Positions 39,545 to 45,149 of a stretch of 64,000 bases of DNA are shown in pieces. The DNA comes from Fimbriimonadales bacterium (GTDB lineage Bacteria > Armatimonadota > Fimbriimonadia > Fimbriimonadales > ATM1). The number at the start of each line of letters is the position of its first letter. The first letter of the stretch is position 1. The notes under the pieces are model-generated. The model made no database searches. It saw nothing but the letters and a program-made list of their open reading frames with translations, and was not told the origin of the DNA. Location: positions 47,637 to 111,636 of the forward strand of contig JBGTLG010000004.1 in assembly GCA_041744215.1 (NCBI GenBank), given 5' to 3'. A program made the translations under genes and the position numbers.

Positions 39545-41542
39545 ATGCCTACCGTAGACGCGTCAATGCGACCTCTTGCCATAGCCCTAATCATGATCGT
39601 TTGCGGCGTCGCCGTGGCGCAGAACCCAGTCATTGAGGCCCGCCAGTTCTCGTCTCCGCCCACCATCGACGGAGTCGTCGACGAGCAAGAATGGGAGGAG
39701 GCGACCAGGGTCGAAGGATTCACCTTGATCGCAAATGGGTCGCCCGAGCCGCATCGAACTCGCGCCTGGATAGGATACGACACACAGAACATTTACATAG
39801 CATATATCTGTGAAGATCCAAATCCAACACTTCTTCGAGCAACAGAGTATCGAAGAGGTGCAAACTTGTCAGGAGACGATCGAGTCATTTTTGTCATTAA
39901 CGCTTTCGCGACGCAACGCGGCGACGACATGAGCGAATTTGAAGTGTCGGCCGGCGGAGGCTCTAGGTCGTCCATTGCAGGCGGGAGAGCTGCCAAGCGA
40001 GAGTGGCAAGGCGACTGGATCGCCAAGGCGAGAATCACAGATAGCGGGTATGAAGTTGAGGCTAGCATCCCTTGGGCAATCTTGCCGCTCCCAGGTGCTG
40101 GCGTACGGAACATCGACGTAAATCTCGGTCGCTTCTACCAGCGCCAGCAACTGATCGCCGCTTACTCAAACATTGGCCCTGAGGAAAGAAGCGACCGTCA
40201 CGCGGTCTGGCTAGGCGTTAACGTCCCGCAAGTAGCACAGGCAGGCGCGTTGCAAGCACTTCCATACCAGGTGCTTGGTTACGATGACGAAGGAGGTTCT
40301 GTAGTCTTCAATACGGGCGTTGACATGAGATACCGTGTGAATCCTCAGCTTACGGTGCTCTCATCAATAAACCCAGATTTTCAGAATCTCGAGAATGCTG
40401 TGCTCAACCTTGAATTCTCGCGCTTCGAGCGCCTTGCGGATGAGCGCAGGCCGTTTTTCGTCGAGGGAGGTGACTTCTTTAGAATGGGCGGTAGCGCGCG
40501 TCCTTTTGCGTCGCAGCGAATCGGCCCGTTTGACGTCGGCGGAAAGGTGTTTGGTAAGATAACCGACGATAGCGTCATCGGCGCACTGACAACGATTCAA
40601 TTCGGCGAAGCCGTGAACGCCGCAGTTCGCTACCGAAAGACTTTCGATCAACGGTCCCACGTCACGGTTGGATGGGTGTATAGCGACCGCGAGGGAGAAG
40701 GAATCACAAACCATGCTGCAAACACCGAGCTGATGATAGACGGTGAAAGGTGGGGCGTAGGTGTAATCCACGCGATAACGGAAGACTCAGACGTCGGCGC
40801 TGGTAAGCGAACGGACGTCGACGTGTTCTATCACGATGGAGCAGTGAGCGGCAGTTTTGGGTGGCAGCAGATCAGCCCGAACTACCTCCCACGCATCGGC
40901 TTCGCGCCAAGGCGCGGCCTCAAAGGATGGCAGGGAAGGCTGGAATATGAAAAGGCATTCACCTCGGGAGGCATCGTCGATGCCTCTGCGAGTGTTTCCT
41001 TCTTTGACTCCGACCATTGGGATGGAAGCGGCGTCTACTTTGATAATCGGTCGGTGAACGCCGGAATCAATCTTCGCAATGGTCTTAGTGTCAATGCCGG
41101 AACCGGCGTGTCAAACTTTAAGGGCTCGATCGATAAGATCACATGGATCTGGACCGAATACCCCAGCAACGATCCTTACCAATCGCTCGGCGTCGGTTCA
41201 GTTTTCGGATCCGTAGGCGGCGATCGGTACCTTCGGTATGACTTCTTCGGAAGATATCGCTTTCCGTTCAAACTCTCTGTCTTTGCCAGCCTCGGATTCG
41301 AGGCACTCGCAAGTGAAAACAATCACCTGCATATCATCGGAACCAGCTTTGAGCTATCCGAGTTTCAATCAATCGCCGGTCGAATGGTCATGCGGGACTC
41401 GAAGGTGAACTGGTATCTCTCGTATCGACAATCGGGCAACTTCGGTGCTGAGTACTACGTCATCATCGGCGACCCCAATGCACCAACGTTTCAGAAGCGA
41501 GTCGTTCTGAAGGCGGTCTTTCCGTTTGAGATTCGCTGGTAA
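39545..41542 (+). CDS. Secreted CBM9-like domain plus DUF5916-like beta-barrel protein
   Basis: PTIDGVVDEQEW, YEVEASIPW, INPDFQ, ERRPFFVEG motifs; C-terminal aromatic residue; start could be 39566. Confidence 0.8.
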   Translation: MPTVDASMRPLAIALIMIVCGVAVAQNPVIEARQFSSPPTIDGVVDEQEWEEATRVEGFTLIANGSPEPHRTRAWIGYDTQNIYIAYICEDPNPTLLRATEYRRGANLSGDDRVIFVINAFATQRGDDMSEFEVSAGGGSRSSIAGGRAAKREWQGDWIAKARITDSGYEVEASIPWAILPLPGAGVRNIDVNLGRFYQRQQLIAAYSNIGPEERSDRHAVWLGVNVPQVAQAGALQALPYQVLGYDDEGGSVVFNTGVDMRYRVNPQLTVLSSINPDFQNLENAVLNLEFSRFERLADERRPFFVEGGDFFRMGGSARPFASQRIGPFDVGGKVFGKITDDSVIGALTTIQFGEAVNAAVRYRKTFDQRSHVTVGWVYSDREGEGITNHAANTELMIDGERWGVGVIHAITEDSDVGAGKRTDVDVFYHDGAVSGSFGWQQISPNYLPRIGFAPRRGLKGWQGRLEYEKAFTSGGIVDASASVSFFDSDHWDGSGVYFDNRSVNAGINLRNGLSVNAGTGVSNFKGSIDKITWIWTEYPSNDPYQSLGVGSVFGSVGGDRYLRYDFFGRYRFPFKLSVFASLGFEALASENNHLHIIGTSFELSEFQSIAGRMVMRDSKVNWYLSYRQSGNFGAEYYVIIGDPNAPTFQKRVVLKAVFPFEIRW

Positions 41543-41563
41543 CCGAATGGGTACGATTCTCAA

Positions 41564-41884
41564 ATGACTTTCCAAACGACGAACTGCGTAGCGCTTGGCG
41601 TGCCGGATGTAGTCGAAGGCGCAACCTTTTACGAGCGCGTCCTCGGCTTCGTAAAGCTTGGACAGGGCGACGACTGGATCGAACTCCAATCTGGCGCGCT
41701 ACGACTTTTCATTACGAAGAATGATGGGACGACACCGACATTCGATCTCTCAGTATCCGATGTTGCCGAAGCGTCCAAGCATCTGATCGAGAACGGGTTT
41801 GAAAGGTTAGGCGAGAGCAACGGCGAAGTCTATCTGCGGGACCCCTATGGGAACGCTTTCGCAGTATCAAAACGGTCTGTGTAA
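41564..41884 (+). CDS. VOC/glyoxalase family protein
   Basis: FYERVLGF, YLRDPYGN. Confidence 0.88.
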   Translation: MTFQTTNCVALGVPDVVEGATFYERVLGFVKLGQGDDWIELQSGALRLFITKNDGTTPTFDLSVSDVAEASKHLIENGFERLGESNGEVYLRDPYGNAFAVSKRSV

Positions 41885-41885
41885 C

Positions 41886-42278
41886 TCACTCGCGCCGCTT
41901 TGCTGCGCGCGGTCCAAACCACTTTAGGTTGTCTTCCGGCGCGAGTTCCGATTCGAATGCGCGCACTAACTCCATGGCTTCTGATTCAAAGTGATACGAC
42001 CCATCGATCTCCCCTTGCCAGATCGTCTCGATCACCCACGAAGGCACGGGCAAAAACACGATCCGCTCTGGCGCCTCAACGCGGACACTCAAGACGGTCG
42101 CAGTCGAATGCTGTTCCGAAAAGATGAACTCGAATCGCGCAGCGTCTGGCTCATAGACCGTAGTGCCGATCTGCGGTGTGCCCTTGCCAAATCCTTCGAG
42201 TAAGACGCTCTCGCTGAATTCACCTTCGGACGGAGGGCGTTGATCCGACAGCGATTTGAAAATCGCGAGCTTCTTCAT
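41886..42278 (-). CDS. Hypothetical protein
   Basis: ORF MKKLAIFK... filling the gap downstream of the hydrolase; no recognisable motif. Confidence 0.7.
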   Translation of the reverse strand: MKKLAIFKSLSDQRPPSEGEFSESVLLEGFGKGTPQIGTTVYEPDAARFEFIFSEQHSTATVLSVRVEAPERIVFLPVPSWVIETIWQGEIDGSYHFESEAMELVRAFESELAPEDNLKWFGPRAAKRRE

Positions 42279-42301
42279 GGCCGACCATTCATTAAGGGTC
42301 A

Positions 42302-42979
42302 TCACAATCCGCCCCGAAGAAACGCGACCGTCCGCTTCCACGCGTCTTCTGCCGCAGCAGCGTCATAGACTTCCACTCTCTCGCTATTGCAGAAGGCGTG
42401 GCCGACACCTGGATAGATGTGGAAGTGATGCTCTTTGCCTTTTGAATCAAGGTCATCGCTCAAAGCCTTGACAACTTCCGGAGTTGTCATATGATCTTGC
42501 TCCGCGAATAGACCGAGTATCGGGGCCTCCAGCCTCTCGAACGGAGGGTGGACGTTCGGATGGATTCCATAAAAGTTGACGCAAGCGCCGATCTTCGGAT
42601 TGGTCGCGGCAGCATACATCGAGAGTTGCCCACCCATACAAAAGCCCACGACCCCAACCCGCTCACCAGAAGTTGCATCGTCGTTCAGCAGCCGATCGAC
42701 TGCCCGGCTTAAAATCTCCTCAGTATTGGCGATATCGAGCGCCATCATCAGCGTTCCGGCTTCGTCAGGCTCCGTCGTGCTTTCGCCCTCATAAAGGTCA
42801 GGGGCGAGGGCCGTAAACCCCTCCTCTGCAAATCGGTCCACAACATCCTTGATGTGCCCGACCAATCCCCACCACTCCTGGAGAACGATGACCCCCGGCC
42901 CCGTGCCCTGCGCCGATCGAGCGATGTAACCCTGAAAAGTCTTCCCATTGCTGGGAAACGAAACCATCTCGCCTTTCAT
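42302..42979 (-). CDS. Dienelactone hydrolase family protein
   Basis: QEWWGL, GFCMGG, YPGVGHAF catalytic motifs. Confidence 0.95.
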   Translation of the reverse strand: MKGEMVSFPSNGKTFQGYIARSAQGTGPGVIVLQEWWGLVGHIKDVVDRFAEEGFTALAPDLYEGESTTEPDEAGTLMMALDIANTEEILSRAVDRLLNDDATSGERVGVVGFCMGGQLSMYAAATNPKIGACVNFYGIHPNVHPPFERLEAPILGLFAEQDHMTTPEVVKALSDDLDSKGKEHHFHIYPGVGHAFCNSERVEVYDAAAAEDAWKRTVAFLRGGL

Positions 42980-42999
42980 GCTCAGATTATACGGCCACT

Positions 43000-43137
43000 A
43001 AAAAGAGAGGTGGGGCCGGTGGGCGATTCCGGCCCCTGGTGGTTGCACCCACCGCCTGAGGGCGTGGCAGTGGTGCAGTTGTGGGCGAGGGCATGGGAGA
43101 GGAAGTTTCGCGTTTCCTACAAGGCCTTCTACCCACC
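43000..43137 (-). ncRNA. Candidate structured small RNA (~135 nt) with 3' terminator
   Basis: Starts ~12 nt after a sigma54-type promoter; three consecutive hairpins, the last GGGGCCGG/CCGGCCCC followed by ACCTCTCTTTTT. Confidence 0.55.
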
Positions 43138-43146
43138 CTCTATCCG

Positions 43147-43162
43147 AGCAAGAACCGTACCA
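43147..43162 (-). promoter_or_regulatory. Sigma54 (-24/-12) promoter
   Basis: Minus strand TGGTACG-GTTC-TTGCT versus consensus TGGCACG-N4-TTGCW (one mismatch, exact spacing). Confidence 0.7.
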
Positions 43163-43348
43163 ATACCGGTCGCCCGCTCAATCCGGGCTTTTTGCTATGT
43201 TCGAATTGCGTGCAATCCCGCAATGTCGCGAGATCCGATCGCCCCTTAACATCCCGTTAGCACTCCCCTGACACAATGGCGAAACCTAACCTGAGTGCTA
43301 AACTGGGCTGCACAATTCAAGCCCAATCGGGCACTCGGAGGAACACAC

Positions 43349-44470
43349 TTGGGCACAGCCTATACACCTGGATTAACAGTCAGCGAAGACCAAATCGTCA
43401 GCAAGATCCGCCGCCTGCCGTTGAAAGGGCAGGTCCTGGTTCAAGAAGGCGACTCCGTCAACCCCGACACGCCGGTCGCGCGAACAGAGCTTCCAGGGAT
43501 GCTCCAAACCGTAAAGGTAGCCGAAAAGTTGGGCGTCGAAACCAAGGAGGTCCACGGTCTGCTGAAGGTGTCGATCGGCGACAAGGTTAAGGTCGGCGAC
43601 GTACTCGCTGAGTCGAAGGGGCTCTTTGGGCTGTTCAAAGGTACGGCCACGTCAGATTACGAAGGGACGGTTGAGGCGCTCTCAGAGGTGACCGGTAACC
43701 TGCTCGTTCGTGAAGCGCCGATTCCCGTCGAGATAACCGCCTACCTCACCGGAAAAGTCACCGACATTTTGCCCGAAGAGGGCGCAATCATCGAGACAAG
43801 GGGAGCAATTGTCCAAGGCATCTTTGGTATCGGCGGAGAACGCTTCGGTGAGATCAGAGTCGCAGTAAACAACGCGGCTGAAACACTTGACAAACACCAC
43901 ATCAGGCCAGAAGATGCTGGGAAGATTCTTATAGGTGGAAGCGGCGTCACGCTGGAAGCAGTGAAGGAAGCCGAAAAAGTCGGAGTCGTCGGCTTGGTGG
44001 CTGGAGCCGTCAGAGATGTAGACATTACTACCTACCTCGGCTACGACATTGGCGTGGCCATAACTGGCCAAGAGCAGATTCCATTGACGGTCATCGCCAC
44101 CGAAGGCTTTGGCAATCTTGCAATGGCGGGCCGAACTTTCGAACTCTTCAACTCCATATCGGGCAGGAAAGCCAGCATAAACGGGGCAACGCAAATCCGA
44201 GCGGGAGTTATCCGCCCTGAGGTCATCGTTCCCAACGAACACGCGCCGTCCGGCACGCCGAAAGTGGATAGCGCGACGAGTCTTGATAAGGGCACACCGA
44301 TTCGTGTGATCCGCGAACCCTACTTCGGTCAGCTCGGAGAAGTCGTAGAATTGCCGCCGGAGCTTCAAGTTGTTGAATCCGGCACAGAAGTTCGAGTTCT
44401 GAAGGCGAAACTCGCAGACGGAACTGTCGTAACAGTCCCACGCGCAAACGTAGAAATAATCGCAACCTGA
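43349..44470 (+). CDS. Conserved hypothetical protein with biotinyl/lipoyl-like barrel-sandwich repeats and C-terminal KOW-like motif
   Basis: GGAGG RBS before TTG 43349; VQEGDSV/VSIGDKVKVGD repeats; VRVIREPYFGQLGEV-type C-terminus. Confidence 0.8.
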   Translation: MGTAYTPGLTVSEDQIVSKIRRLPLKGQVLVQEGDSVNPDTPVARTELPGMLQTVKVAEKLGVETKEVHGLLKVSIGDKVKVGDVLAESKGLFGLFKGTATSDYEGTVEALSEVTGNLLVREAPIPVEITAYLTGKVTDILPEEGAIIETRGAIVQGIFGIGGERFGEIRVAVNNAAETLDKHHIRPEDAGKILIGGSGVTLEAVKEAEKVGVVGLVAGAVRDVDITTYLGYDIGVAITGQEQIPLTVIATEGFGNLAMAGRTFELFNSISGRKASINGATQIRAGVIRPEVIVPNEHAPSGTPKVDSATSLDKGTPIRVIREPYFGQLGEVVELPPELQVVESGTEVRVLKAKLADGTVVTVPRANVEIIAT

Positions 44471-44480
44471 CGGAGAACAG

Positions 44481-45149
44481 ATGAAGATACTGATAGTTGA
44501 AGACGAACCCAGCCTGCTGGAAACCATCGCCAGACAACTGTCAAAAGACGGCCACACCGTGGTCACCAGCCAAACTGCCGAAGATGCCATTAAGCAGTTT
44601 CGGCTCCAACGACCAGATCTCATTGTCCTCGATGTGATGTTGCCTGGCAGAAGCGGCTTCGAACTGTCCCGAGTGATCCGCGAGGAAAGCAAAGTGGCGA
44701 TCCTCTTCCTATCTGCGAGGGCGAGTGAAAGCGATCGGCTGCAAGGATTTGAGGTCGGTGGCGACGACTACCTGACCAAGCCGTTCAATCTAGCCGAACT
44801 TTCAGCAAGGGTTCGCGCAATTCTGCGTCGATCGATCCCTGCATCAGACGCAAAGCCAATCAGCGTCGGCTCCCTGAAAGTCGATCCAGACCGACACGAA
44901 GCTTGGGTGCGAGAAAGTCGACTGGAGTTAAAGCCGAAGGAGTTCGCCCTTCTCTATTTCCTGGCTTCAAATCCAGGGAAGGTGTTTACCCGAGACGCGC
45001 TCCTCGACCGAGTCTGGGGACCCGACGCATACGTAACTCCGCGCACAATCGACGTCCATGTCAGTTGGCTGCGTAAACAAATCGAAGCGGGCAATGGTGA
45101 ATCTCCTCGAATCGTAACTGTGCGCGGAATCGGCTATAAATTCGTTTAA
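44481..45149 (+). CDS. OmpR/PhoB-family response regulator (no adjacent kinase)
   Basis: VEDE, LDVMLPG, DDYLTKPF, RTIDVHV..LR, TVRGIGYKF. Confidence 0.96.
   Translation: MKILIVEDEPSLLETIARQLSKDGHTVVTSQTAEDAIKQFRLQRPDLIVLDVMLPGRSGFELSRVIREESKVAILFLSARASESDRLQGFEVGGDDYLTKPFNLAELSARVRAILRRSIPASDAKPISVGSLKVDPDRHEAWVRESRLELKPKEFALLYFLASNPGKVFTRDALLDRVWGPDAYVTPRTIDVHVSWLRKQIEAGNGESPRIVTVRGIGYKFV

Follow-up and report, generated by a model that had tools for sequence, protein, structure and literature searches.

A predicted small RNA family of the Fimbriimonadales, probably trans-acting, with C-rich candidate anti-Shine-Dalgarno seeds

A spacer between two divergently transcribed genes in a 64,000-nucleotide (nt) stretch of Fimbriimonadales DNA very probably holds a conserved, single-copy gene for a structured RNA of ~140-160 nt, read from the minus strand from ~43148 or 43136 down to 43000. 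This stretch, hereafter the window, corresponds to C4:47637-111636 of genome G000, and all coordinates refer to its whole length. We propose that the product is a trans-acting small RNA (sRNA) of an undescribed Fimbriimonadales family, whose C-rich motifs would serve as anti-Shine-Dalgarno (anti-SD) seeds; as a whole, we give this explanation a probability of roughly 0.6. The gene (43000..43148) is matched over 43002-43138 by a covariance model (121 bits, E 8e-28), and this is the sole match in its own genome, an assembly of 2.68 Mb that is 93% complete. An initial annotation had suggested an independent, structured sRNA on this strand, and the suggestion is borne out by conservation under covariance models and by covariation in two of its hairpins, P2 and P3. 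All the features it listed (a -24/-12 motif, three hairpins, a U-rich tail, a palindrome and a TATAAT box of the neighbouring hydrolase gene) are present where it placed them.

The 44 aligned members of the family share one layout. From the 5' end, GGAA is followed by hairpin P1, by an unpaired stretch that contains CCCACAA (in f1, the family of the window, also GCCCUCGCC), and then by hairpins P2 and P3. The 5' end of the RNA in the window is predicted at ~43136 if the promoter is of the sigma-54 type and at ~43147 if it is of the sigma-A type. The 5' motif reads AGAA here (43127..43130; this and all following parts of the RNA lie on the minus strand) and GGAA in nearly all relatives, one or the other being found near the 5' end in 43/44 members. 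P1 (43100..43118), read from the sequence and the fold, pairs AGGAA (43118-43114) with UUCCU (43104-43100) around the loop ACGCGAAAC; relatives carry a hairpin of different sequence at the corresponding place, as judged by eye with its pairs uncounted. It is followed by the unpaired C-rich stretch CUCUCCCAUGCCCUCGCCCACAAC (43078..43099), which holds both conserved motifs, GCCCUCGCC and CCCACAA. The covarying stem of P2 (43044..43077) is formed by TGCACC (43077-43072) and GGTGCA (43049-43044), and its loop ACGCCCUCA (43065-43057) contains GCCCUC. A linker, ACCACCA (43037..43043), which corresponds to (G)UGCCACC in family f1 and to CCUCCAGCCC in family f3, leads to P3 (43012..43036), a terminator-like hairpin with an 8-bp G+C stem made of GGGGCCGG (43036-43029) and CCGGCCCC (43019-43012). 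The P3 loop AAUCGCCCA (43028-43020) is conserved in its 3' half. The tail ACCUCUCUUUUU (43000..43011) closes the gene; a T run follows P3 in 36/44 members, and the RNA is predicted to end within the U run at 43004-43000.

The three hairpins of the initial annotation fared unequally: P2 and P3 are supported by the relatives and the inner stem of P1 is present, whereas its outer stem is not conserved. For the inner part of P2, which had been drawn as CGCC/GGCG, the relatives support UGCC/GGCG with the loop ACGCCCUCA instead. Taken alone, the thermodynamic support for the fold is modest, with a minimum free energy of -61.3 kcal/mol for 42995-43140 (z = -2.29) and 3/200 shuffles as good; the comparative covariation in P2 and P3 is decisive. 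A further stem closing the 5' GGAA motif (P0) was rejected, the best stems of 2-7 bp being no better than those of shuffles (median shuffle fraction 0.67).

With the ten f1 sequences placed on the model, 90.3% of cells are paired and 9/16 pairs have changed on both sides. Sliding the partners by 1-3 columns lowers pairing to 34-55%, and the covariation score of 0.276 was reached by 0/500 shuffles, the slid controls scoring 0.058-0.128. In this alignment 7/8 pairs of P2 have changed on both sides and one varies on one side; when the window is compared with G001, a sister genome of ~80% identity, P2 pairs have changed on both sides, from A:U into G:C and from C:G into U:A. P3 was assessed in 44 members, where 98.8% of cells are paired and 4/8 pairs are compensatory. 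Fitting these alignments to the model biases them towards the structure, but the slid controls and an independent MAFFT/RNAalifold result argue that the covariation signal is real. Seven sequences have a U:G pair at one P3 position (44 members), and further U:G pairs occur in P2 of f1. We assign the function to the minus strand of the window, because these pairs would be A.C on the other strand.

By BLAST against 40 relatives, the spacer showed 80% identity to that of G001, and a short piece (43000-43063) was matched in four more genomes of three other genera. In the alignment of these relatives P3 is identical, including the 3' half of the loop, while its flanks diverge; the exact P3 sequence with its loop is thus kept across four genera. 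The pattern GGGGCCGG-NNTN-GCCCA-CCGGCCCC occurs once in the genome of the window and exactly in five relatives. When this exact pattern was run over genome contigs, six loci were returned, namely the five known relatives and L010, from a record titled Bipolaricaulota, which is apparently coding and was dropped as a chance match. Four members with variant P3 stems (G002, G003, G007 and G009) were found by reading the regions upstream of the 373-amino-acid (373-aa) protein gene that flanks the RNA in the window.

Two covariance models extended the search, R1 from the ten f1 sequences and R2 from 24 members. R1 found exactly one match in the window's genome (the one given above) and one strong match per genome in 10/20 genomes of the family, covering 7/9 genera (E 8e-17 to 8e-28), with weak matches or none in genera g3 and g4. 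It also gave full-length matches, at other loci, in 17/98 genomes of a second family, f3. At E <= 0.001, R2 matched 74/151 genomes of the order Fimbriimonadales, almost all with a single match; this is an upper bound, as some of the matches at E 1e-4 to 1e-3 are false positives, and just over 50 matches have E < 1e-9. By family, the R2 matches are distributed as 14/19 in f1, 53/98 in f3, 5/29 in f5, 1/3 in f2 and 0/1 in f4, plus the window's own genome. Weak matches were set aside where they covered the 3' end of ftsZ plus a hairpin (G005, G017) or the 3' end of cox2 (G039), or were ambiguous (G019). Outside the order, in a phylum-wide sample of 151 genomes, R1 produced two marginal matches (G255 and G237, E 5e-4 and 9e-4), so far as searched consistent with a family restricted to Fimbriimonadales. 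The genome tallies for BLAST, the 373-aa gene, R1 and R2 include one unpublished genome, G011, on which no conclusion hinges. The conservation that the initial annotation had suggested looking for in related genomes is therefore found in many Fimbriimonadales.

In genus g4 (L174 = G005:C15; L176 = G017:C28), GUCCCACCUCC stands directly after ftsZ and is followed by a hairpin, GGGGUCGG-ACCUGCCAU-CCGACCCC, and a U run. The arrangement is like that of the linker and P3, with nothing of the rest of the RNA, and may be either a remnant or else a convergent terminator.

Metagenomes were searched with a relaxed P3 pattern, and among the 80 matches listed nearly all were chance matches in G+C-rich coding DNA. 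Locus L105 is identical to G013 in the 180 nt that were compared, and L117, L058, L100, L065 and L116 may be further members. On contigs L117 and L058 we read ...CCCTCCAGCCCA(A/C)-GGGCCGG-TTTCGCCCA-CCGGCCC-GTTT, which is the f3-type 3' end of the RNA family, and the family therefore occurs in environmental data beyond the genomes searched. Reads carrying the DNA of the window itself come from three DNA runs of one hot springs metagenome study, and a search for sequencing runs turned up no RNA run that carries it.

The genes around the RNA differ between lineages, and for this reason we regard it as a probable trans-acting RNA and not as a leader. Every f1 copy is oriented away from the 373-aa gene and sits ahead of it, at ~130-170 nt from the open frame and ~200-250 nt from the start codon. 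On the 3' side comes a dienelactone hydrolase gene of the same orientation in the window, G001, G002, G003 and G007, that is, in part of f1 only, and this order would suit a leader that acts in cis on the hydrolase gene, or an attenuator, in which P3 would be the regulated terminator. We consider such a leader very improbable, since the downstream gene is a different or convergent one in G006, G008, G010 and G013 and in f3, and the hydrolase gene has a TATAAT of its own 6 nt before its ATG, as the initial annotation had already pointed out; no alternative anti-terminator pairing was seen, in the course of an analysis that did not search for one systematically. In f3 the RNA is near neither the hydrolase gene nor the 373-aa gene, the latter being ~100 kb away in G036. 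There it ends 0-9 nt from a convergent open reading frame (ORF) of ~500 aa in 7/14 loci examined; Peptidase_C11 is matched by three of these ORFs and by one of 450 aa at an eighth locus, and in G032 the gene convergent with the RNA encodes an SRP54-type GTPase. The constant position upstream of the 373-aa gene in f1, together with convergent genes that end at or in P3 in f3, G010 and G013, might also be expected of an element acting as DNA, either as promoter or regulatory DNA of the 373-aa gene or solely as a bidirectional terminator. That reading is as improbable as the leader, given the f3 copies remote from the 373-aa gene, the strand-specific U:G pairs, and the extent of conservation, ~140 nt with two hairpins that covary, which far exceeds what a terminator needs. 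Least credible of all is a small protein (MPSPTT...) as the real product, which the initial annotation had named as an alternative: the window does hold an ATG-initiated frame, which from ATG 43094 runs to 35 codons rather than the 31 first reported, but no SD sequence precedes it, its translation diverges from that of G001 after five residues as the frame shifts, it is different in G008, and in G009 no ORF reaches 20 codons. There is no conserved ORF in the RNA.

Nor does the RNA match a known family, and the initial annotation had recognised none: Rfam 15 gave no match on it at E <= 10 (searched over 41500-45000), or at E <= 1 in five f3 loci. An identity with 6S RNA was rejected, as RF00013 had no match in the 93%-complete genome and the folds of six members consist of separate local hairpins, with no rod bearing a central bubble; the 6S RNA of the Fimbriimonadales clade may be too divergent for the Rfam model. 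Signal recognition particle (SRP) RNA was likewise rejected, being found elsewhere, on contig C25 (RF00169, 56 bits). Among the literature on Armatimonadetes small RNAs, in the part of it that was accessible, no paper about a small RNA of this phylum was found.

The C-rich single-stranded stretches, which the initial annotation had put forward as candidates for pairing with SD sequences, are the most conserved unpaired feature of the RNA family. At least one CCUC is present in 44/44 members, and CCUCC stands just before P3 in 31/34 f3 members and 4/10 f1 members; in f3, a strongly conserved UCCUCCAC-ACCCUCCAGCCC lies directly ahead of P3. The P3 loop reads ..UYGCCCR in f1 and YCUCGCCMR in f3, and the P2 loop of f1 holds GCCCUC. 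Because the 16S rRNA of the window's genome ends in CACCUCCUUU, the CCUC, CCCUC and CCUCCA motifs correspond to the anti-SD core. By analogy with C-rich sRNAs of Firmicutes, we therefore posit that these unpaired motifs could pair with GGAGG-type ribosome-binding sites of target messenger RNAs (mRNAs), that pairing there would block translation initiation, and that the loops of P2 and P3 might act as further C-rich seeds. C-rich seeding is the best-supported function of the RNA, and anti-SD pairing as its mechanism is a tentative proposal to which we give somewhat less than even odds.

Its main rival is a protein-binding RNA, a sponge or scaffold that a protein would recognise at the invariant P3 loop, at the P2 loop with its GCCCUC and at the GGAA motif. 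The conservation of loop sequences while stems covary would suit such a role, as would the exact P3 with its loop kept in four genera between divergent flanks, and a single-copy, widespread RNA in a genome where Rfam finds no 6S RNA recalls the housekeeping RNAs. The architecture is nevertheless not the rod of 6S RNA, its 3' end being a local hairpin; one or two GGA motifs are far below the number in CsrB/RsmZ-type sponges; and no candidate partner gene is linked to the RNA, whose neighbours vary. On these grounds we hold a protein-binding role to be unlikely, and clearly less probable than pairing with mRNAs.

Several observations weigh against the proposed trans-acting sRNA with C-rich seeds. 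CCUC is expected ~0.8 times per 140 nt by chance, on a rough estimate, against a mean of ~3 observed per member, and the motifs are short and lie in a background of 56-65% G+C. In f3, the alignment to the models is poor in the middle of the sequences; P1, and in f3 also P2, were judged by eye. About half of the order's genomes have no match, including 25/28 in genus g11, which may reflect divergence or true absence, and the 74 genomes with a match are, as stated, a ceiling. Finally, the U run in the window begins 7 nt past the P3 stem and the hairpin is not listed in a terminator scan, so this is no textbook terminator, and the T run after P3 is missing in 8/44 members. Because of this offset and these missing runs, P3 may be no terminator, or not only one.

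Upstream of the RNA the family keeps a recognisable architecture on the minus strand, GCAAT-N9-GyAAAT, then CCG(G)TTTT, then CCnGGTAG ~35 nt before GGAA. The three boxes ahead of CCnGGTAG were recognised by eye, and in a loose positional count they occur at only 2-7x the shuffle expectation. In the window, boxes A (CGCAAT, 43210-43205) and B (GCAAAA, 43195-43190) span 43190..43216 with a 9-nt spacer, box A lying inside the palindrome; the box C region CCCGGATTGAGCGGGC (43172..43188), whose counterpart in relatives is CCG(G)TTTT, folds into a small hairpin, terminator-like on the plus strand according to a scan; and box D, CCGGTATT (43162..43169), represents the family-wide box CCnGGTAG / CyCGTATT (the latter in f1). 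The distance between boxes C and D is ~8-10 nt shorter in the window, G001, G002 and G003 than in other members. GGTA, CGTA or AGTA stands exactly 26-27 nt ahead of the model start in 27/44 members, and the window has two overlapping GGTA, 29 and 23 nt before it. Boxes A and B were also considered by eye as a -35/-10 pair, a sigma-54 site or a palindrome, and none fitted.

In the genome of the window, GGTAnnnT occurs within 40 nt upstream of 30/49 tRNA genes, against 0.008 expected, which looks like the organism's sigma-A promoter consensus, a GG-extended -10 box. The tRNA boxes are mostly GGTATAAT, GGTAGAAT, GGTACCAT or GGTATCCT (an example, outside the window, is G000:C4:44825), and no -35 box is evident by eye ahead of the tRNA genes. 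Box D resembles the tRNA box GGTAGAAT without its final T. Within the window, GGTACGGT (43154..43161, minus strand) fits GGTAnnnT and overlaps the -24 element of a sigma-54-like motif, TGGTACGGTTCTTGCT (43147..43162, minus strand); G009 has TGATACCAT at the position of that element. The box region of the window and G001 reads both as a near-consensus sigma-54 site and as a sigma-A GGTAnnnT box.

The initial annotation had made the sigma-54 site the promoter of the RNA, in which case transcription in this genome would start from TGGTACG-N4-TTGCT near 43136 under the control of a single enhancer-binding protein. The motif has one mismatch to TGGCACG-N4-TTGCW and the exact spacing of its GG (43161-43160) and GC (43149-43148), and it is identical in G001 within a 24-nt identical block. 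The genome does carry rpoN, for which the initial annotation had advised looking (PF04552, 116.5 bits, contig C16), together with one strong enhancer-binding protein gene (PF00158, Sigma54_activat, 252 bits, C6:123091-123585), four other matches to this domain being weak. TGGYAYR-N4-TTGCW occurs five times genome-wide on both strands, against 4.2 expected from base composition; four of the five matches, the window's included, lie between long ORFs and one inside a gene, and some of these sites are probably real because of that placement. Among the RNA members, however, the motif with <=1 mismatch and the GG/GC core is found in only 2/25, the window and G001, and is therefore not the reason for the conservation of the RNA or of its upstream boxes. 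G002 keeps TTGCA at the right distance, with TG for GG and two mismatches, and G008 keeps TTGC with one extra spacer base; given TGGTACG, which G008 keeps for other reasons, a rightly placed TTGCW has p ~0.0017 per lineage. The same bases also fit the -10 box of the tRNA genes. The palindrome ATTGC-NN-GCAAT (43205-43216), put forward as a possible activator site, is present in the window and there alone; its GCAAT half is what is conserved, even in members without a -24/-12 site. Sigma-54 control of the RNA is thus possible but on balance doubtful, its near-consensus sequence and spacing standing against a genome count equal to chance, a restriction to two members and the overlap with a sigma-A box.

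Because the family keeps a different box, CCnGGTAG, and the -24/-12 motif is found in so few members, these sequences indicate that the ancestral promoter of the RNA is not a sigma-54 promoter; in the genus of the window, a sigma-54 site may have arisen atop the ancestral promoter, or the match may be fortuitous. Candidate members of the regulon under the single enhancer-binding protein are the other near-consensus sigma-54 sites between long ORFs, all outside the window: G000:C4:23977(-) TGGCACGTATATTGCT, C25:67984(-) TGGCACGGCATTTGCA and C25:60571(-) TGGCATACAAATTGCT. No upstream motif was seen in common between the window's site and these three, bar one exact 9-mer that it has in common with one of them, which also speaks against its control by sigma-54.

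A more far-reaching version of the proposal, less probable still than the protein-binding role, would make the RNA, near-universal in two families, a global translational regulator that mimics the anti-SD tail and whose unusual promoter, strict in its spacing, was rewired to sigma-54 in one genus. The tandem UCCUCCA-CCCUCCA of f3 and the GCCCUC of f1 would then be the anti-SD mimics, and CCnGGTAG, sigma-A-like but without the final T, would together with the three boxes imply a dedicated activator or an alternative sigma factor. If true, the switching of sigma factors would have a natural example here, at an sRNA gene of one hot-spring genus.

The spacer that holds the RNA (42980-43348, 369 nt) lies between the minus-strand hydrolase gene and the divergent plus-strand 373-aa gene. 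The dienelactone hydrolase gene (42302..42991, coding sequence 42302-42979, minus strand; PF01738, 192 bits) has its TATAAT at 42991-42986, ahead of the ATG at 42979, and no SD sequence in the 42977-42991 region; the same TATAAT-ATG arrangement is found in G001. Its mRNA is probably leaderless, because the TATAAT ends 6 nt before the ATG and an SD sequence is lacking. A 151-aa ORF (41886-42341, minus strand) lies downstream and overlaps the hydrolase gene by ~40 nt; neither Pfam nor NCBIfam assigns it to a family. The plus-strand 373-aa gene (43296..44470) has an extended -10 box TGCTAAACT (43296-43304), an SD sequence GGAGG (43337-43341) and a TTG at 43349, which we take as its true start because similarity to the relatives begins exactly there. 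It is a single-copy core gene in 59/61 genomes of the order (55-83% identity), with a conserved extended -10 box TGCTAAAMT 40-110 nt upstream in every locus read. The protein has no NCBIfam family, and its Pfam match to Biotin_lipoyl is weak and below cut-off; its look-alikes in the Atlas are ~375-aa hypothetical proteins from several phyla, with Biotin_lipoyl, RnfC_N or KOW as leads.

A single-copy, structurally supported RNA in about half of the order's sampled genomes would give a first point of entry to the post-transcriptional regulation of this clade, and its covariance model is ready for genome annotation. The GGTAnnnT consensus and the short list of candidate sigma-54 promoters should help to annotate these mostly uncultured genomes. 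The sigma-54 question itself is less weighty than the initial annotation held, because it is confined to one genus.

sRNAs driven by sigma-54 are known from Proteobacteria, among them Qrr, CrcZ and GlmY. Like these, the RNA of the window and that of G001 are preceded by a -24/-12 motif and are structured, in a genome with rpoN and one enhancer-binding protein gene; unlike them, 23/25 members lack the motif, no recognisable enhancer-binding protein site is common to this promoter and the other candidates, and there is no similarity in sequence or structure. With 6S RNA (RF00013) it shares being single-copy and widely conserved within its clade, in a genome where Rfam finds no 6S match, and it differs in being shorter (~140-160 nt) and in having separate local hairpins with a terminator-like one at the 3' end in place of a long rod with a central bubble. 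The closest parallels are the C-rich anti-SD sRNAs of Firmicutes, such as RsaE/RoxS, and RNAIII of Staphylococcus aureus, with C-rich hairpin loops that include its terminator hairpin. As in these, an independent gene of ~100-150 nt ends in a G+C hairpin, several C-rich motifs that are unpaired or in loops complement G-rich ribosome-binding sites, and one motif lies in or next to the terminator hairpin. The differences are a lack of sequence or model similarity (Rfam, E <= 10), another phylum, motifs of the CCCUC/CCUCCA type rather than CCCC/UCCC, and a mechanism that for the present RNA is a proposal. Conserved upstream boxes, a P3 hairpin followed by a T run in 36/44 members and varying neighbours are all as expected of a trans-acting sRNA gene. 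Taken together, trans-acting sRNAs that carry C-rich seeds and end in a hairpin are a well-known kind of element, to which this RNA would belong, while the RNA family is new and so is the phylum for such an element.

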